Assembly (NCBI GenBank): GCA_040390065.1
Contig: JAZJZE010000001.1
Location: 1 to 64,000 of the forward strand
From: a bacterium
Lineage (GTDB): Archaea; Thermoplasmatota; E2; JACPAO01; JAHFTW01
DNA length: 64,000 nt
Direction: 5' to 3'
The notes under the pieces were generated by a model, which was given only the letters and a program-made list of their open reading frames with translations, did no database searches and was not told the DNA's origin. The translations under genes were made by a program, and so were the position numbers. Shown one piece after another: positions 21,987-64,000 of this stretch; position 1 is the stretch's first letter; each line of letters begins with the position of its first letter.

Positions 21987-22228
21987 GGTCGCCGCTGCCC
22001 AGTCTCGTAACGCGGCCCTTCATCCCGACCTGCAAACAGGTCGATCATTTGGGCAGCGGGGTCTTGCGACCCCGCGGACCGGCGGGGGGCTCTGCCCCCC
22101 GCCCTTTTCCCCCCGCCGGGGGGCTGCCGCCCCCCTGGCCCCCCTGCAGGGCTGCCGCTCGGTCCCGTATCAGGGTACGGAGGGGAAATGGTCGCCGCTG
22201 CCCAGTCTCGTAACGCGGCCCTTCATCC
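21987..22228. repeat. Perfect 39-bp direct repeat (21987-22025 and 22190-22228) flanking a 164-bp stack of GC hairpins
   Basis: ggtcgccgctgcccagtctcgtaacgcggcccttcatcc occurs twice. Confidence 0.95.
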
Positions 22229-22549
22229 AATCCCGATGACGGGACAGTCGGACCCTTGACCCGAAACTGGCAAACCGGGTCCCGAAGCCGTCCTCCGAAG
22301 AGGCAGCAGAGGCGACGGGCCGGCGGCCTTGTGGCGTGTTCGCGGCGTTGTCTGGAACGAGGTTGTCTCCCCCTCACGGCATGACGACGCGCCAGAGGCT
22401 CGGGGGAGGGCCGCCCCAAAAGAGGGGCATCGCACCAGGTTTCCGGCCGAAGCCGGGATGGGCCGAAGCCCTGTTGCCCAACCTTTGCGCACCCCGTCAC
22501 AGACCGCCGAAGCGGACTAAGGGGTGCCTTCGGGTCGGGCAAGTTCTCC
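22190..22549 (-). ncRNA. Candidate large structured ncRNA of unknown family
   Basis: At least four C(UUCG)G-capped stems on the minus strand, long-range helices, no credible ORF, TATA-like box near 22570. Confidence 0.6.
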
Positions 22550-58344: not shown

Positions 58345-59466
58345 CTAGCCGAAGAAGCCCTTGCGTTTGCGCGGTTTGACTTCGGTTCCGAGCTCCTTGG
58401 CCAACTCTTCGAGGAGTTCGCGGGCGCGGGCACTCGGCTTGTCGGGGACGTCGATGCGCAGCCTGACGTGGAGGTCGCCTCGACCATGCCCCCGTAGCGA
58501 TGGCATGCCCTTGCCCTTGACGCGGACGGCGGCTCCGGTCTCGGACCCCGCGGGGATGGGTACCTTGAGTGGGCCGTCGAACGTGTCGAGGTCGAGTTCT
58601 GCGCCGAGGACCGCCTGCGGGATCGAGATGGACATCTCCGTCAAGAGTTCGGTGCCTTCGCGGTGGAACCGGTCATGCTCGCGCACCTCGATCTGCACGT
58701 ACAAGTCGCCGTAGGGGCCGCCGCGCGGGCCCACCTCGCCTTGGCCGTTGACGCGCAGGCTCTGGCCGGTCTCGATGCCGGGCGGAATCGTGACCGTGAC
58801 GGCGCGACGATGCCTCTCGTGGCCAGTACCGCGGCACGTGTGGCAGGGCTTCTCGATGGTGCGACCCTCGCCGTTGCACGTCGGGCACGTCGTCACTTGG
58901 CTCATGGTGCCAAAGGGAGTGCGCACCATGCGTTGCACACGGCCTTCGCCGCCGCAGGACGTGCAGGCGGACACCTTGCTGCCTGGTTCGGCGCCGTTGC
59001 CTTCGCACGTCTCGCAGCCTTCCAGCCGCCAGTACTCGATGCGCGCCTCGGTCCCGTGCAGGGCCTGCTCGAGGGAGATGGCATGTGCGACTTGCAGGTC
59101 GCGGCCGCGGCCCGGCCCGCCACCGCGGCGCCCACCGCCGAAGCCGAACATCTGGGAGAACAGGTCCTCGAATCCCATGCCGCCGAAGAGGTCCTCGACA
59201 TTGATGTTGCGGTACAGGTCGTCGGCGGAGTACTGCGAATCGATGCCGGCGTGCCCGAGCTGGTCGTAGCGCGCCCTCTTGTCCGTGTCCGACAGCACGG
59301 CATACGCTTCGGAGAGCTCCTTGAACTTGTCCTCGGCGTCGGCAGCCTTGTTGCGGTCCGGGTGCAGTTGGATGGCGAGCTTGCGGTAGGCCTTCTTGAT
59401 GGCGTCGGCATCCGCGTCGCGCCCCACGCCAAGCACGTCGTAGTAGTCCCGCTTGCCCGTGGCCAC
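58345..59466 (-). CDS. dnaJ: Chaperone DnaJ
   Basis: HPD J-domain, G/F region, four CxxCxGxG repeats. Confidence 0.97.
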   Translation of the reverse strand: MATGKRDYYDVLGVGRDADADAIKKAYRKLAIQLHPDRNKAADAEDKFKELSEAYAVLSDTDKRARYDQLGHAGIDSQYSADDLYRNINVEDLFGGMGFEDLFSQMFGFGGGRRGGGPGRGRDLQVAHAISLEQALHGTEARIEYWRLEGCETCEGNGAEPGSKVSACTSCGGEGRVQRMVRTPFGTMSQVTTCPTCNGEGRTIEKPCHTCRGTGHERHRRAVTVTIPPGIETGQSLRVNGQGEVGPRGGPYGDLYVQIEVREHDRFHREGTELLTEMSISIPQAVLGAELDLDTFDGPLKVPIPAGSETGAAVRVKGKGMPSLRGHGRGDLHVRLRIDVPDKPSARARELLEELAKELGTEVKPRKRKGFFG

Positions 59467-59512
59467 GGCGCGGCCACAGTGCGCCGCTTCTAATCGCTTG
59501 CTCCCGGTGCGG

Positions 59513-60007
59513 CTACGGGTTCGTGAACTTGCCCACGGTTGCGAGCAGGAGGCCGGCGACGACGAGGGTCACGAGGTAGTAGCCGACGTTGACGAAGTAG
59601 ACGGGCCACTTCTGCCGCTCGAAGGCGACGCGGTTCAGGTTGACGGGCACCATGAATCCCAGCCAGGTGAAGACGCCGCCCATGACGCCGTCCATCGGGG
59701 AAAGGCTGTAGTCGGCCTTGCCGTGCGTCGCGGTGTTCCTGTACGCATCCTGGTACACCCAGTAGTCGTGGGCGAGGACGAACATGAGAAGGAACGCGCC
59801 GACGAGCATCAGGATCATCGACGTGGCCATCTCTTTCGCGGGCGGCTTCGGCATCGTGGCGGGGTCGAGCCCCTGGTCGCGCATCCAGATCTTCCCCGTC
59901 GGCGACCACTTCGAGTACCAAAGGAAGCCGATGACGACGTTTGCAACGAGCGCGGCGGCGAGGCCGAGCCAGTTGAAGCCTGCAAAACTCCAAGCAGTGG
60001 GGTCCAT
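59513..60007 (-). CDS. DUF1761-family membrane protein
   Basis: NW...IGFLWYS...GKIW, WLGF.VP, FE, NVGY. Confidence 0.8.
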   Translation of the reverse strand: MDPTAWSFAGFNWLGLAAALVANVVIGFLWYSKWSPTGKIWMRDQGLDPATMPKPPAKEMATSMILMLVGAFLLMFVLAHDYWVYQDAYRNTATHGKADYSLSPMDGVMGGVFTWLGFMVPVNLNRVAFERQKWPVYFVNVGYYLVTLVVAGLLLATVGKFTNP

Positions 60008-60069
60008 GGTTTGCGCCTACCGTACGTTGCCTTGGAAAAGGGAGGAGGGGAGGAAGGTGAACGCGGGTC

Positions 60070-60516
60070 TCAGAGCGTCGCGAAGATGAGCCCGGCCACG
60101 AGGATGTTCACCAGCTGGTACCCGCCGTTGATGGCGACCAGGCCCATGGGGCGCTTCTCCCAGGCCAGAGAGCCGAGAAGCTGCGGGACCATGAAGCCCA
60201 TCCAAAAGAGGAGGGCCCAGCCCATCAGCTCGCCGACGTCGTTCTGGTGGACCGTGATTCCGCCACCGCTGACCTTCTTGCCGACCGTCAAGCCGAGCGC
60301 AAGCATCATGAGGAACGACCCGACGAGCATCATGACGAGGCCTTTCATCATCTCCCCGGAGTCCGGCTTGGCCTTCGGGTCCATGCCCATGTAGCCCATC
60401 CACATCTTTCCGGTGGGGAACCAGCCGGCGTACCAGACGAAGCCGATCACGAAGTTTGCAACGATGGCGACGGCGAGAGCGACCCAATTCATGTATTCGA
60501 AGTCGAAGGCATTCAT
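60070..60516 (-). CDS. DUF1761-family membrane protein (tandem paralog)
   Basis: NW...IGFVWYA..PTGKMW, WMGFMVP, WE, INGGY. Confidence 0.8.
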   Translation of the reverse strand: MNAFDFEYMNWVALAVAIVANFVIGFVWYAGWFPTGKMWMGYMGMDPKAKPDSGEMMKGLVMMLVGSFLMMLALGLTVGKKVSGGGITVHQNDVGELMGWALLFWMGFMVPQLLGSLAWEKRPMGLVAINGGYQLVNILVAGLIFATL

Positions 60517-60663
60517 GGTGTTCACAGCCCAGGAGGGCAAACGGAACTCCGCCAGGTGCTATACAAGGGTGCCAGACTCCATCGCGTCGCCAACCTGCAG
60601 GCGATGCACCGGAAGCGCCAGGGCGGCCCAGAGGCATAGTTGTAAATGGCCCGCGAACCAATA

Positions 60664-60950
60664 GGAGAGGGCTCTGCGGGGTCAAACCCACAGGGAAGGA
60701 CAATCATTTCGGTGATTGGCCCTCCAACACCCAGGAGAGGGGCGCGGCTTACTCGCCCCCAACCGACGTGGCCTGGCGGCTACGACCCGGTCAAGTGAAC
60801 CAGAGGGTTGCTAAGAGGCGAAAGCCGACTTGGCGACTAGACGGGAAAAACCTGGATGGCCTCGGTCTTCGGACCAAGGAAGCCGAAAGGCGTGGAGCCG
60901 TGGAATCGCTCGGTGCCGCACCGACCTTTCCACGTTCGAGGGGATTTTTT
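60664..60950 (+). ncRNA. Candidate structured ncRNA of unknown family
   Basis: Two UUCG and two GAAA capped stems on the plus strand, TATA-like tgtaaatg at 60641, T6 run at 60945-60950. Confidence 0.6.
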
Positions 60951-61007
60951 CCGGTCGACGTCCCGTGCGTCGGCGCCGCCGCCTTTTTGAACCAGTCGAG
61001 GCGTGCC

Positions 61008-62147
61008 GTGCGCGGTGCTCGCTTGAAGCCCGCCCTTTCCGTTGGCGTCCTGCTCGTTCTCGTTGCAAACGTCGTGCCCGCCGGCGCCCAGATGCCGCCC
61101 GCCGACCCGAGCTTGACCTGGTACGTCCATAACGTCACAAGCACGAGCGGCGGGTCGGGGCCAACACTGAGCTTTACGGCCCCGGGCTCCGATGAAGTGG
61201 CCGTCGCTGCCTCCTGCACGACGGCATGCGCCGGCGCCGCCGCCCTCGTCCATCACGCGGATGCCGAGACGGGCTTGCCGGTGGCCCTGGTGGCGACGGG
61301 TACCGGCGGGGAGGCGCACGTCTGGGTCAAGAGCTACCAGGGCGGCGCTGCACCGGGGACGAAGGCGACCGTGACGGTCTTCGCCGACGGCGTCTCCATC
61401 GCGACCGGCACGGCGACGATGGACGTCGTCGCCGCCACGGTCGAGTACGTCATCACCCTCGACTTCAAGGCGGCCTCGATTGCAATGGGCGCGAAGATCT
61501 CCATGGAGCTGGCGGTGCAGGATTCGCACTGCACATGCTACCTGCCCGTTGCGTACGCAAAGGGCGTCGACGCCACGTACGCCTGGCGCTTCACGTTGCC
61601 CGTCACGGTGAGTGGCGCGACGACATCGGGGGCCAACCACTATGCCAGCGAGAGTGGCCCGAGCCTGCATGCGACTCTCGCGTTGCCGACCGCAACGACG
61701 GCGAATTACTTCTACAACTGGACCACCGGCTTCTCCGCCGTGGAGATTTCCTACAGCGCCCAGCCCACAGCCGGGTCGGTCCACTTCCTCGTCCTCGATG
61801 CAGACAACAAGACGCTTCTGGACAAGGCCCTGTCCGCCGCCGAGGACCGGTCCGTCCAGGTGCCGGCGGCCACAGCCGGCGTCTGGCACGTCAGCATCCA
61901 ACTGACCGGGTTCCAAGGCAATGCCACCCTCGTCATCGTCTCGTCCCAATTGACACCGCCATCGTCGTCGCCGCCGGGCGGCTCGTCCGGGCCAGGCCCG
62001 ACCGACGGGGGAAATCCAGGCACGCCCTCCGGCGGCTCAAACCCGTCCCCGTCTCAGACCAGCAAGGGCTCGCCCGGAATCGATGCCGTCCTGTTTGCCG
62101 CCGTGCTTGCGGGCTCGGTGCTGGTGGCCCGACGCCGCCAGGCGTAG
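61008..62147 (+). CDS. Secreted surface protein with S/P/G linker and C-terminal sorting signal
   Basis: Signal peptide, T/S-rich body, KGSPG-TM-RRR tail. Confidence 0.75.
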   Translation: MRGARLKPALSVGVLLVLVANVVPAGAQMPPADPSLTWYVHNVTSTSGGSGPTLSFTAPGSDEVAVAASCTTACAGAAALVHHADAETGLPVALVATGTGGEAHVWVKSYQGGAAPGTKATVTVFADGVSIATGTATMDVVAATVEYVITLDFKAASIAMGAKISMELAVQDSHCTCYLPVAYAKGVDATYAWRFTLPVTVSGATTSGANHYASESGPSLHATLALPTATTANYFYNWTTGFSAVEISYSAQPTAGSVHFLVLDADNKTLLDKALSAAEDRSVQVPAATAGVWHVSIQLTGFQGNATLVIVSSQLTPPSSSPPGGSSGPGPTDGGNPGTPSGGSNPSPSQTSKGSPGIDAVLFAAVLAGSVLVARRRQA

Positions 62148-62187
62148 CCAGCACAGGCTTTTTGCCCCGGCCGGCTTGGGCCGCGCA

Positions 62188-62556
62188 ATGGTCACCATCG
62201 GCAAGGGCCTGCTGGACTCCGCGGTGCACGAATTCTTCGACGCCGTGCGCAGCTACGACGCCAAACGCGCCGCCGCCGTTCTCGCCGAGGATGCCGACTT
62301 CGACAGCCCGTGGAGCGGCCACCTCACGGGCAAGGCCAACGTCGAGGCGTTCCTCAAGACGTGGCTCTCGGATCCGGTGAAGCGCCCGACGTTCACCATC
62401 ATCGACGTCGCCGGCGACGGCGCCATCGCACGCCTTCGCGTCTCGATCTCCGGCCGCTTCGGCAAGGCCCCCGAGCACTGGAACCTGACCGTGCTCTGCC
62501 TTAAGCACGTCGTGCACCAAGTCAAGTTCGCGGGCGATGCGAAGGCTGGTCACTGA
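62188..62556 (+). CDS. SnoaL/NTF2-like protein
   Basis: VHEFFDAV...LAEDADFDSP...G.ANVEAF. Confidence 0.75.
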   Translation: MVTIGKGLLDSAVHEFFDAVRSYDAKRAAAVLAEDADFDSPWSGHLTGKANVEAFLKTWLSDPVKRPTFTIIDVAGDGAIARLRVSISGRFGKAPEHWNLTVLCLKHVVHQVKFAGDAKAGH

Positions 62557-62602
62557 GGAACCGCTTCGCCAAGGCTAAACGCGAGGCCCGGTGCGACGCG
62601 CA

Positions 62603-62788
62603 ATGCGCAACTTCATCGTCTGCGGAATCTGCGGGGCCGTGGTCGTGAGCCATCCCGTCACCGTGACGCAGCATCGGCTCTGGCACAACAAACACATCGA
62701 CGGCAAGACGGAGGCCTTCGCCGCGTTCAGCCTCCTCGAAGCCGCCGATTTCCCGGCCGCGAAGTTCCGCGTCACCGAAGAAGAGTAA
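62603..62788 (+). CDS. Small C2H2-like zinc-binding protein
   Basis: CGICGAVV...HRLWH. Confidence 0.6.
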   Translation: MRNFIVCGICGAVVVSHPVTVTQHRLWHNKHIDGKTEAFAAFSLLEAADFPAAKFRVTEEE

Positions 62789-62911
62789 GGCCCCCACCGG
62801 CGGGTTGGGTGGGCAAGAGTACGCCGGTGGAGGTTGGAGAAACACCCTCGGAAGAGGAATAAGAACTTCGTGGGGGCAACGTGGTAGGCGCTGGGCCGAA
62901 GCGAGACGGCG

Positions 62912-63325
62912 TCAGGGGAACCTGAACGTGGCAAGCAGCGTGCTCTGGCCGTTGTTCATGTAGGCGACGCTCACCGACGTCACCGACGTGCCGCACGTGA
63001 TGACCTGGCCCGCGGCGACGTTGCCCGTCACCGTGGACGCGCTGCACCGGGCCGCCCCCGCCGTCGTCGAGATTGGCGCCGGGTTGCCTCCATTCACGCC
63101 GACTTGGATCGTGCTCCACGGCACGTTTGGGTCTGCCTGGTTGACGGTCAACGTGCCGCCCCCGCTCGGGTCCGATGCCTTGTTGAAACTGATTGTCGGC
63201 GCTTCGTCGAACGTCCGGTCGCCCGGATTCGTCGTGCCCTGGCCGTTGGGGTCGTAGGGTTTCGTGCTCGCGCATCCGGCCGAGAGGGCGGCGACGACGA
63301 CCAAGGCCACGAGGAATCCGCGCAT
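62912..63325 (-). CDS. Lipoprotein carrying a pilin-like globular domain
   Basis: LSAGC lipobox; SFNK..PSGGG..TVNQADPN..W..I.VGVNGG matches the pilin at 35888. Confidence 0.8.
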   Translation of the reverse strand: MRGFLVALVVVAALSAGCASTKPYDPNGQGTTNPGDRTFDEAPTISFNKASDPSGGGTLTVNQADPNVPWSTIQVGVNGGNPAPISTTAGAARCSASTVTGNVAAGQVITCGTSVTSVSVAYMNNGQSTLLATFRFP

Positions 63326-63363
63326 GGGGCGCAAGATGGCCCCGCGATGATTACGCTTTGGGA

Positions 63364-63609
63364 CTACGCATGGGGCCGGAGCCGGTGCAGGGCGGCCAGC
63401 AAGCCGTCATGCATCCTGTGTTCGACCTTCACGACGCGGGGCTTGAGGCGATGCCAGCCCTTGGCGATGCCGGCGGCGGCCTTGTGTTCGGCCTTCATGG
63501 CTTTGCGGCGCACGATCTCCGCATCGCGATGCCACATCTTCGACAGGTTGAGGGTGGCGCGGCGCCAGGCGCGGCGCACGGGGTCAGCAAGGACGACAGT
63601 CTTGGGCAT
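63364..63609 (-). CDS. Small basic hypothetical protein
   Basis: 81-aa K/R/H-rich ORF; TATA-like ctttatg upstream. Confidence 0.55.
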   Translation of the reverse strand: MPKTVVLADPVRRAWRRATLNLSKMWHRDAEIVRRKAMKAEHKAAAGIAKGWHRLKPRVVKVEHRMHDGLLAALHRLRPHA

Positions 63610-63687
63610 GGTCTACCAAGACTGACTGTCGGCGCCCGGTCCCCATAAAGGGTCCCCCCAAAGGACTTTCAAGGGCCCGGCGCGGCG

Positions 63688-64000
63688 TTACTTTTTGCCC
63701 TTCTTGGGCTTGTCGTCGTCCGCCGATTTGCCGGCCTTTGCCGGCCTGTCTTCGTCGGCGGGCTTCGCCTTCCCTTTCTTGGGCGCCTTGGGCTCGGCCT
63801 TGAAGTCGGCATCGATGGGCGGCACGCCCGCTTCGCTTGGGTTTCCTGTCCACGCGCGGTCGCCGCCCTCCTCACCCGCGGGGGCGTCCGGCTGGCCCGG
63901 CGCGGCGGCGTTCTTGTACATCTCCATGACCGCGGGCTCGAGCGCCTTGTGCAACGCCTCGGTGTGCGACTTGAGGCCCTCGACGGAAGGCTCGTCCTTC
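63688..64000 (-). CDS. dnaK: Probable DnaK (Hsp70) C-terminus, partial
   Basis: Helical lid-like EALHKALEPAVMEMY and IDADF motif; same strand and upstream of dnaJ; most of the gene lies outside the window. Confidence 0.6.
   Translation of the reverse strand, partial: KDEPSVEGLKSHTEALHKALEPAVMEMYKNAAAPGQPDAPAGEEGGDRAWTGNPSEAGVPPIDADFKAEPKAPKKGKAKPADEDRPAKAGKSADDDKPKKGKK

Follow-up and report, generated by a model that had tools for sequence, protein, structure and literature searches.

What is encoded in the gap of about 490 nucleotides (nt) that separates a divergent DUF1761 gene from a surface-protein gene starting at GTG 61008 in a 64,000-nt stretch of a Thermoplasmatota genome (positions 1 to 64,000 of contig JAZJZE010000001.1, assembly GCA_040390065.1; hereafter the window)? 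A first-pass annotation, made from the letters alone, had proposed that a stand-alone and possibly undescribed structured RNA is hidden here within a spurious extension of an open reading frame (ORF). We found that the gap very probably houses a genuine gene for a new structured non-coding RNA (ncRNA) of about 275–280 nt on the plus strand, at 60669-60950. The sequence and the covariation among homologues confirm the placement and strand of the proposed RNA, and the 563-amino-acid (aa) ORF at 60456..62147 does overrun it, the true gene start being GTG 61008. The notion of an independent, undescribed RNA is likewise supported by the lack of any Rfam match, by strong covariation and by contigs present in RNA libraries. 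The RNA represents a previously undescribed class, found so far only in Thermoplasmatota. The gene and its putative signals are the following:

60669..60950, plus strand: ncRNA gene of about 275–280 nt, placed by half-model matches and RNA-library contigs
60640..60647, plus strand: TATA-like box TTGTAAAT, seen in the sequence
60640..60662, plus strand: promoter region, consisting of TTGTAAAT, 10 nt and a conserved CCAAT (60658-62)
60945..60950, plus strand: T6 run, a likely termination signal, seen in the sequence

By BLASTN, partial matches confined to two conserved blocks were detected in 11 of 41 genomes, including the one under study; the other ten all belong to its family (f1). Instead of a full-length model (279 positions) we used half-models, one covering the 5' half (R1, rebuilt as R2) and another the 3' half (R3). 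In the window, the match to the 5' half-model (60696-60807) reaches 115.4 bits and that to the 3' half-model (60839-60942) 98 bits. R1 was matched in 30 of the 31 other f1 genomes, representing 10 of 11 genera, and R3 follows directly downstream of the 5' half at all 30 loci and in 33 of 33 units. The sole f1 genome without an R1 match (G014) is a 71%-complete metagenome-assembled genome (MAG), in which no RNA was found at the locus beside the gene for an NTF2-like protein described below. The RNA is mostly single-copy in f1, as it is in the genome of the window. R2, rebuilt from 33 sequences and searched with stricter filters in a sample of the class, matched none of the 6 genomes of two sister families and none of 113 genomes of seven further families; at the syntenic dnaK-dnaJ site of the sister families there was no RNA, the best score being 9.5 bits. 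In a sample of the phylum (150 genomes), the RNA reappeared in two distant families, f34 (4/6 genomes) and f16 (1/9), and in none of the 133 genomes of other families. The distant carriers possess both halves, in 2–3 copies per genome. An exact two-motif pattern, run over one genome per prokaryote species, retrieved 16 stretches, 13 of them in Thermoplasmatota MAGs; the three bacterial stretches, inspected by eye, carry none of the other motifs, and their number is close to the chance expectation. A viral origin was dismissed on similar grounds, as the one pattern match in viral contigs also proved, by eye, to be devoid of every other motif and was attributed to chance. A pattern scan of metagenomes gave 10 matches, of which 3 are genuine loci. 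Outside Thermoplasmatota, nothing genuine was found by the pattern scans of prokaryote genomes and viral contigs.

The RNA does not fall into any family known to us. None of the 4227 models of Rfam 15 matched it at the gathering score or at E<=10, and across the window Rfam 15 reported only the archaeal 16S-tRNA-23S-5S operon, i.e., ribosomal RNAs (rRNAs) and one transfer RNA (tRNA). Between 60500 and 61100 three junk matches to long non-coding RNA models were obtained at E<=10, and nothing else. At 11 diverse homologue loci searched at E<=1 there was nothing at the position of the RNA, only one tRNA and two junk matches elsewhere. The Rfam comparison advised at the outset thus matched no known family, either in the window or at homologue loci. 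ARAGORN found no genes for tRNA or transfer-messenger RNA in 60400-61200. The first-pass annotation had recognized no consensus of signal recognition particle (SRP) RNA or RNase P RNA, and model searches agree. Archaeal SRP RNA (RF01857, gathering score 96.5 bits) was ruled out, with no match at E<=10, the sole SRP RNA match of the genome (141.3 bits) lying on another contig (G000:C2:60862-61171). Archaeal RNase P RNA (RF00373), for which the threshold is 84 bits together with conserved regions CR-I and CR-V forming helix P4, was ruled out likewise at E<=10; the RNase P RNA of this genome scores 124.5 bits, again on another contig (G000:C9:468941-469240). Full texts of the literature, the scope of our search exclusive of supplementary files, yielded no description of such an RNA.

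Several resemblances noticed on the way were discarded. By eye, GAGGGGAAAAACCUGG is similar to the CR-I motif of RNase P RNA; the similarity does not extend to the pairing partners, and the CR-I/CR-V resemblance as a whole was dropped as resting on a by-eye comparison with general motifs and/or as inconsistent among homologues. The same holds for a sarcin-ricin loop likeness (GAGAGGA..ACCGGAG), a GGAGG complementary to the 3' end of 16S rRNA, a UGAACC complementary to tRNA T-arms and a pyrimidine tail pairing with GGAGAG, each based on a by-eye comparison with a general motif and/or not consistent among homologues. Homology with a second candidate RNA of the window, at 22190-22549, was rejected, as neither half-model matches there. 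The motif aaacctgg common to both candidates had been judged a possible coincidence in the first-pass annotation, a caution with which the half-models are in line. As a side observation, in the 22190-22549 candidate this motif lies on the minus strand, and Rfam gave no match to that candidate, the best being a trypanosomatid small nucleolar RNA model at 25.2 bits (E = 0.0028), also on the minus strand.

Does the sequence adopt one defined fold? Covariation among homologues supports eight hairpins (H1–H8), two long-range helices (Pa and Pb) and a loop-loop pseudoknot. In the window, the parts are:

60672..60695, plus strand: H1, variable 5' hairpin (CUCUG.GGG / CCC.CAGGG), from the predicted fold and homologues compared by eye
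60698..60721, plus strand: H2, UUCG-loop hairpin with the clamp GG (60698-99) / CC (60720-21)
60722..60727, plus strand: Pa, 5' strand CUCCAA, partner 60892-60897, from RNAalifold and joined alignments
60728..60735, plus strand: Pb, 5' strand CACCCAGG, partner 60851-60858, from RNAalifold and joined alignments
60739..60759, plus strand: H3, 6-bp stem (60739-44 / 60754-59) with the conserved 9-nt loop CGGCUUACU (60745-53)
60762..60791, plus strand: H4, outer stem (60762-65 / 60788-91) and inner hairpin (60768-83), by eye
60792..60806, plus strand: J4/5, near-invariant purine-rich joiner CAAGUGAACCAGAGG, family consensus AAGUGAACCGGAGG
60807..60837, plus strand: H5, hairpin of variable length; its tip in the window is GAAA
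60838..60850, plus strand: J5/Pb, near-invariant joiner UAGACGGGAAAAA, consensus UGAGGGGAAAAA
60851..60858, plus strand: Pb, 3' strand CCUGGAUG, from joined alignments
60860..60879, plus strand: H6, variable UUCG-loop hairpin
60882..60891, plus strand: H7, GCC-GAAA-GGC, conserved GNRA-type loop
60892..60897, plus strand: Pa, 3' strand GUGGAG, from joined alignments
60900..60933, plus strand: H8, terminal stem GUGGAA/UUCCAC and inner stem, conserved loop with GCCGC (60915-19)
60745-48 with 60915-18, plus strand: predicted pseudoknot between the H3 loop (CGGC) and the H8 loop (GCCG)

The 5' half (18 pairs) is 90.6% paired, against 66.4% in shuffled alignments, with none of 500 shuffles as high and a sharp peak relative to slid registers. 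For the 3' half, comprising H7 and both parts of H8 (14 pairs), the values are 86.2% and 68.5%, again with 0/500. Both long-range helices were first proposed by RNAalifold on ten sequences and were tested by joining the two half-model alignments (33 sequences); their 14 pairs are 89.8% canonical versus 73.7 +/- 1.1% after shuffling, a level reached in none of 1000 shuffles. These shuffles ignore phylogeny, and related sequences inflate the significance. A stronger argument is provided by swaps that recurred independently and by the variety of pair types. Each of the 6 Pa pairs is canonical in 30–32 of the 33 sequences, with variants such as CACCAC/GUGGUG, CCCUAU/AUAGGG and CUCCGA/UCGGGG. Pb is exchanged for CCUGG/CCAGG (L039), CCUAG/CUAGG (L041) and GACCUGGG/CCCAGGUC (L048), and in distant lineages for UUCACCGG/CCGGUGAA and CUUGUCGG/CCGAUGAG. 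Of the 9 H2 pairs, set within a conserved frame GGACA...UGGCC, eight have changed on both sides, and 91.2% of the cells are paired (33 sequences); H3 is paired in 100% of cells, with 5/6 pairs changed on both sides, and H7 in 92.6%, with all 3 pairs changed. One part of H8 is 97.6% paired (3/5 pairs changed on both sides) and the other 73.3%, and its outer stem is replaced by a wholly different one in distant lineages (GCCCGG/CCGGGC). An RNAalifold pairing of GUGG with CCGC inside H8 was rejected, since it involves invariant bases only and is displaced by the covarying GUGGAA/UUCCAC.

The remaining hairpins vary more. In homologues, H1 is built of other sequences, yet by eye a hairpin stands at the same position; it is not present in genus g6 (L039, L041). 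H4 pairs, also recognized by eye, include ACCG/CGGU, GCCG/CGGC, CCCAU/AUGGG and GCCU/AGGC, and its inner loops are often GGGA or GGAA. The length of H5 is highly variable, the gap between the half-model matches being 13–175 nt, with about 140 extra nt in L009 and L028. Insertions of about 30 nt occur in H6 of L005, L007 and L008.

The fold drawn in the first-pass annotation thus stands in its seven local hairpins and fails only in its long-range pairings. H1 (ctgcggg/cccacag), H2 (aatcat-ttcg-gtgatt), H3 (ggggcg/cgcccc), H5 (gttgctaag..ggc-gaaa-gcc..cttggcgac), H6 (ggtc-ttcg-gacc), H7 (gcc-gaaa-ggc) and H8 (gtggaa/ttccac) are all present and show compensatory changes in homologues; the covariation that it had called for is strong in both halves, in Pa/Pb and in the loops. 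The closing pair gagggc/gccctc is not kept in homologues; GCCCUCC pairs instead with GG 60698-99 and UGGAG 60893-97. Similarly, ccagg was to pair with cctgg at 60772, and the partner conserved in homologues is CCUGG 60851-55. The helix cggct/agccg is not retained in the homologue alignments, and neither is a ccag/ctgg pseudoknot, in place of which the pairing of the H3 and H8 loops is supported.

Thermodynamics contribute little: the minimum free energy is -126.2 kcal/mol (z = -2.78, 3/200 shuffles as good), and the opposite strand behaves alike (z = -2.42), so the case rests on covariation. This modest z on both strands, for a region between divergent promoters, is what one would expect of GC-rich DNA that folds by chance or of a conserved protein-binding DNA between divergent genes. 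We give such a non-functional reading almost no credence, as it is opposed by compensatory changes in ten helices and in the loop-loop pairing, by hairpins that change in length around a preserved core, by conservation in unrelated genomic contexts and by the presence in RNA libraries. As to the strand, many G-U pairs (UG in 9/33 sequences at one Pa pair, GU/UG in both halves), which would be A-C if read on the other strand, together with UUCG and GAAA loops on the plus strand, indicate that the plus strand is the functional one.

The H3 and H8 loops read GCGGC/GCCGC in 27 of 33 sequences; all three sequences with GCGAC (L040, L046, L049) have GUCGC, and both with GCGGU (L035, L036) have ACCGC, which leaves a single exception (L029). 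Compensatory changes affect 2/4 loop-loop pairs in several lineages. On a metagenome contig (L067), one of two paralogues has GCGGC/GCCGC, the other GCGAC/GUCGC. We read the pairing, from these sequence comparisons, as a pseudoknot or possibly as an intermolecular kiss, since covariation is blind to whether a pair forms within or between molecules. The latter option would make the RNA an RNA-only homo-oligomer of the ROOL/GOLLD/OLE kind, and covarying intermolecular kissing loops are documented for these three (PMC12286853). The gene arrangement offers some parallels. In one genus, the RNA occurs as a head-to-tail fused dimer (L050 1501-1929, L052 1179-1601, L053 1501-1920), in which the second unit has no H1/H2 part and starts where H8 of the first unit ends; a weaker third match lies on another contig of each of these genomes. 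Tandem gene arrays next to tRNA genes, discussed below, point the same way. We nevertheless regard homo-oligomerization as unlikely, given that at about 275 nt the RNA is far smaller than ROOL, GOLLD or OLE and that each L067 paralogue keeps its own matched loop pair, which fits intramolecular pairing at least as well.

What is most conserved lies outside the helices. Three junction strands (GAGAG, AAGUGAACCGGAGG and UGAGGGGAAAAA) are near-invariant across all three families, as are the loops of H3 and H8 and the GAAA loop of H7; the J4/5 motif recurs in the distant families, and about 40 near-invariant unpaired nucleotides are gathered in one junction. In the architecture that we propose, Pa and Pb would stack into one long helix, with Pb closing a multi-helix junction from which H3, H4 and H5 emanate, and with H6 and H7 branching between Pb and Pa. 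H8, the 3'-terminal element after Pa, would fold back and its loop would meet that of H3, while H1, H5 and H6 would be peripheral hairpins free to vary in length. The invariant junction, shaped by the pseudoknot, would be the functional site. The mechanism that we favour for it, at somewhat less than even odds, is a binding platform for a protein or another partner, i.e., a ribonucleoprotein (RNP) scaffold or a decoy.

Catalysis is the less likely alternative to a binding platform. In a ribozyme, the purine-rich junction would be the catalytic core, with the periphery and pseudoknot holding its shape. The roughly 40 near-invariant unpaired nucleotides amid helices that all covary freely would suit such a role, as would the pseudoknot together with a conserved GNRA loop, peripheral expansions of the kind generally known from RNase P RNA and group I introns, and the persistence of the RNA in lineages without the NTF2-like protein. 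Neither a substrate nor a cleavage-site signature was apparent, the ribozyme families of Rfam gave no match, and such conservation is equally typical of protein-binding RNAs. A ribozyme therefore appears to us unlikely, if somewhat less so than a homo-oligomer.

Is the RNA transcribed from a gene of its own? The TATA-like box (60640-60647) and the T6 run (60945-60950) ascribed to it in the first-pass annotation are both in the sequence, and the transcript is predicted to start at about 60668-60671. By eye, most homologues display an A/T-rich octamer, 10–11 nt, CCAAY and, about 7–10 nt further on, the first helix. A terminator-like hairpin with a T-run is predicted at 60925-60950. Runs of T5 or more occur within about 80 nt after H8 at 11/30 loci versus 3.4% of control windows, and runs of T4 or more at 18/30 versus 9.6%; at most of the remaining loci H8 is followed by a pyrimidine tract. 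At one locus of a distant lineage (L076 3724-5244, G206:C8) we observed three tandem RNA genes with a spacing of 420–430 nt, each preceded by a canonical B recognition element and TATA box (GTATAAAA, GTATAAAG, CTATATCC). A terminator-like hairpin and a U-run close each copy, and the intervals contain no coding gene. Short contigs of metatranscriptomes covered 60671-60944 in 4/4 runs from four studies (groundwater, two freshwater, soil), with lengths of 44–254 nt, 88–99% likeness and a summed depth of up to about 313 in one run. For the transcript that the first-pass annotation had asked for, these contigs, which show neither ends nor strand, count as support and not as proof. One of them meets the sequencing adapter at 60671, a weak hint near the predicted start. 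No contigs covered 60400-60647 or 60958-61300, which is no evidence of silence, because the contigs derive from relatives whose flanks are perhaps too dissimilar to align.

The genes around the RNA bear on its possible role and are listed here for the window:

60070..60540, minus strand: divergent DUF1761 gene (Pfam PF08570, 2.2e-21)
60984..62147, plus strand: next gene, for a secreted surface protein, with a T-rich TATA-like element and GTG 61008; no Pfam match
62188..62556, plus strand: SnoaL_2 / NTF2-like gene (Pfam SnoaL_2)

At f1 loci, dnaK and dnaJ flank the RNA and are encoded on the other strand. The divergent gene on the upstream side is dnaJ, preceded in the genus of the window by DUF1761; such a DUF1761 gene is found upstream and divergent at 9/11 loci scanned, and a second paralogue is present farther upstream of the RNA in the window. 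Downstream, on the same strand and often after an inserted surface-protein gene, follows the NTF2-like gene, and beyond it dnaK and, at some loci, grpE. The dnaK-dnaJ pair is split in this way by an oppositely oriented cassette in the window (59000-64000) and in L004, L013 and L048. In three genomes of a sister family, f2 (L060, L061, L062), dnaK, dnaJ and hsp20 are contiguous, with gaps of 20–40 nt and no RNA, which identifies the cassette (RNA, sometimes the surface protein, and the NTF2-like gene) as an f1-specific insertion.

In f1, the RNA and the NTF2-like gene are co-inherited. The gene was detected in 28 of 31 f1 genomes and in none of the 119 class-sample genomes outside f1, and in 24 of the 28 genomes with both it lies downstream of the RNA on the same contig and strand, 0.04–3.8 kb away. 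The protein has 62 detectable homologues, all of them close relatives with a median isoelectric point of 9.05; the few named ones derive from MAGs of Thermoplasmatota or Thermoplasmata. This matching distribution suggested an RNP. As the protein was not found in distant carriers of the RNA, it is not an obligate partner, and we rejected it as a universal one, given that a single-protein query (E<=0.001) did not find it in 5/5 of them. It would be the best candidate partner in f1, judging from the sequence data, and cannot be a universal one.

The position of the RNA upstream of the NTF2-like gene and on the same strand (24/28 f1 genomes) invites another explanation, namely that it is a cis-regulatory leader, a riboswitch-like aptamer that controls the surface-protein or NTF2-like gene by regulated termination at the T-run. 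Compact loci have only about 40–70 nt between the RNA and the NTF2-like gene (L004, L013, L048), the complexity of the fold with its pseudoknot is aptamer-like, in the window the hairpin preceding T6 overlaps the 3' strand of H8 and could form an alternative fold, and the fused units of one genus recall tandem aptamers. We consider this very improbable. The following genes vary between genomes, with 0 to 3.8 kb intervening, and in L010 (HTH) and L007 (RibD_C) the RNA and the next gene converge. The first-pass annotation had assigned the next gene of the window a separate TATA-like box, and we did find a T-rich element at about 60984-88, some 20 nt before GTG 61008; generally, by eye, downstream genes have a T-rich element at a fixed 22–27 nt before the start codon. 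This spacing fits a TATA box of their own and leaderless mRNAs as in archaea, not a terminator. The three copies of L076, each with promoter and terminator and no coding gene between, and the unrelated neighbours in distant families also stand against a leader. Own promoter and T-rich end, separate downstream TATA elements, convergent neighbours and tandem arrays together make the 5'-leader reading unlikely, and on gene order and TATA-spaced elements the RNA does not behave as a riboswitch, for which we would expect a 5' untranslated region and a consistent class of downstream gene.

A further view of the locus concerns possible mobility. The RNA could be the cargo of a mobile or integrative element or of a genomic island, spread horizontally within Thermoplasmatota and fixed in f1 by an accident of location. 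Its patchy occurrence (f1 30/31, f34 4/6, f16 1/9, and 0/133 genomes of other families), the 2–3 copies per genome in distant lineages and the splitting of the dnaK-dnaJ operon by insertion in f1 would all be accounted for. In L076, a tRNA-Leu(UAA) gene is followed by three repeats of 74–76 nt, which start with the 3' part of the tRNA, and then by the RNA genes, after which comes an ORF that by eye contains a PD-(D/E)xK-like motif and is cut by the contig end; this locus looks like an integration hot spot or a genomic island. The arrays in both L076 and L067 are located directly downstream of tRNA-Leu genes. As a general rule, adjacency to tRNA genes was rejected, since only 1/30 f1 loci has a tRNA gene within the approximately 3-kb locus scanned. 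The flanks that were scanned showed neither an integrase nor a transposase nor a viral gene, and the lone match in viral contigs was a chance one. Retention of the RNA in f1 as a single copy at a fixed site in 30/31 genomes and 10/11 genera points to selection in the host. We judge the cargo view improbable, slightly more so than a homo-oligomer; it also concerns origin and not mechanism and would be compatible with the explanation that we prefer.

Some features of these loci were noted in passing. The product of 61008-62147, a protein of 379 aa, combines a signal peptide and a stalk rich in Ser, Thr and Pro with a hydrophobic C-terminal anchor; the anchor ends in RRRQA, and we take it to resemble a PGF-CTERM-type tail. 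At about half of the f1 loci, the RNA is followed by the gene for a relative that has an N-terminal '..HP...LYAH' motif (by eye). A motif, CAGTTTCGGTTTCCC (consensus approximately TTTCGnnTTCCCG), is positioned about 60–90 nt upstream of the RNA in L005, L007, L008, L010 and L011, between the divergent DUF1761/dnaJ genes and the TATA-like box, and in weaker form in L035, L036 and L038; it does not occur in the window itself. It may be the site of a shared regulator, perhaps of heat shock. Pfam NAD-GH (PF10712) matches antisense ORFs of every Hsp70 gene seen (L006, L013, L048, L060, L061, L062), and these matches opposite dnaK are an annotation artefact of PF10712 and not a gene. In the small sample of family f34, a gene for an FKBP26-type prolyl isomerase adjoins the RNA in two genomes (L077 3237-4972, L079 1354-3235), and in G196 two RNA copies bracket a radical S-adenosylmethionine (SAM) gene.

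Taking the evidence together, we lean slightly towards the view that the RNA is an independent gene whose product is a stable, compact, pseudoknotted RNA of about 275 nt, which would act in trans with its junction as a binding platform. Several points speak against it. The binding function is deduced from anatomy, and the H4 register of the half-model fits just 66.7% of cells, so that this helix is less securely aligned. The T5+ run follows H8 at no more than 11/30 loci, and the metatranscriptome contigs come from relatives, show neither strand, ends nor level, and may reflect DNA carry-over. The NTF2-like protein was found in 0 of 5 distant carriers (one single-protein query at E<=0.001, genomes 72–100% complete), and the neighbours there are unrelated (a Cys/Met pyridoxal-phosphate enzyme, radical SAM, FKBP26 twice, AAA_16); for these two reasons the linkage in f1 may be inherited gene order only. 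Of about 45 families sampled in the phylum, 3 contain carriers, and multi-copy arrays stand beside tRNA-Leu with tRNA-fragment repeats; the patchy spread and tRNA-side arrays would suit an accessory element, or one that moved horizontally, no less than a housekeeping RNA.

The preferred trans-acting RNA lends itself to further work. The defined fold of ten covarying helices and a pseudoknot in about 275 nt is small enough for probing, crystallography or cryo-electron microscopy, f1 offers a concrete candidate partner protein, and natural variants (the fused dimer, tandem arrays and minimal versions of about 200 nt) already bound the essential core. The RNA is also a sign that the archaeal hsp70 operon was remodelled in this lineage, and its function, if found, would open up a part of the biology of uncultured soil and groundwater Thermoplasmatota that is invisible to protein annotation.

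How does the RNA compare with known systems? Large intricate ncRNAs are few, and nearly all of those understood are ribozymes, RNP cores or sensors. To our knowledge, no RNAs usual in archaeal genomes other than RNase P RNA and SRP RNA compare with it in size and complexity of fold, and we know of no large structured ncRNA class in archaea beyond rRNA, tRNA, RNase P RNA, SRP RNA and guide RNAs. RNase P RNA (RF00373) and SRP RNA (RF01857) share with the RNA described here a conserved core, a variable periphery and long-range helices, but they have full-length matches elsewhere in the genome and none at the RNA. The closest known systems are the bacterial orphan RNAs raiA, OLE and ROOL/GOLLD, which are alike in kind and not in sequence or topology.

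The raiA RNA is stand-alone, pseudoknotted and abundant, and usually occupies a conserved genomic position. The raiA motif is a highly conserved bacterial RNA of about 200 nt whose function is unknown (PMC10861870). Both are mid-sized, highly conserved ncRNAs; however, raiA is in Rfam, from which nothing matched, it belongs to Bacillota and Actinomycetota and not to archaea, and the helix topologies are unrelated. OLE RNA has partner proteins encoded alongside, is restricted to a narrow ecological or taxonomic group and is linked to stress adaptation. This ncRNA is large and structured and functions in an RNP with Oap proteins (PMC12286853). The counterpart here is the f1 gene inside the hsp70 locus beside a co-distributed basic protein. 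In contrast, OLE is bacterial, about 600 nt long and binds a membrane protein, whereas our candidate partner is a small NTF2-fold protein not found in distant carriers.

The genes for ROOL and GOLLD often adjoin those for tRNAs and occur in multiple or mobile settings. In siting, the RNA resembles them in that two of its arrays adjoin tRNA-Leu genes, and in fold, too, there is a parallel, since an ornate structure with covarying kissing loops is described for them (PMC12286853). ROOL and GOLLD differ in being 500–800 nt long, bacterial or phage-borne and assembled into 8- to 14-mer cages, whereas the present RNA, known here from sequence, has about 275 nt and is archaeal. Going furthest, one might see in it the first large pseudoknotted ncRNA of an archaeal lineage with an active-site junction, either a new ribozyme or an RNP or RNA-only core tied to the Hsp70 stress locus. 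This we hold to be rather doubtful; if true, it would give the RNA a standing like that of OLE, raiA and ROOL, as the only such RNA known from archaea.

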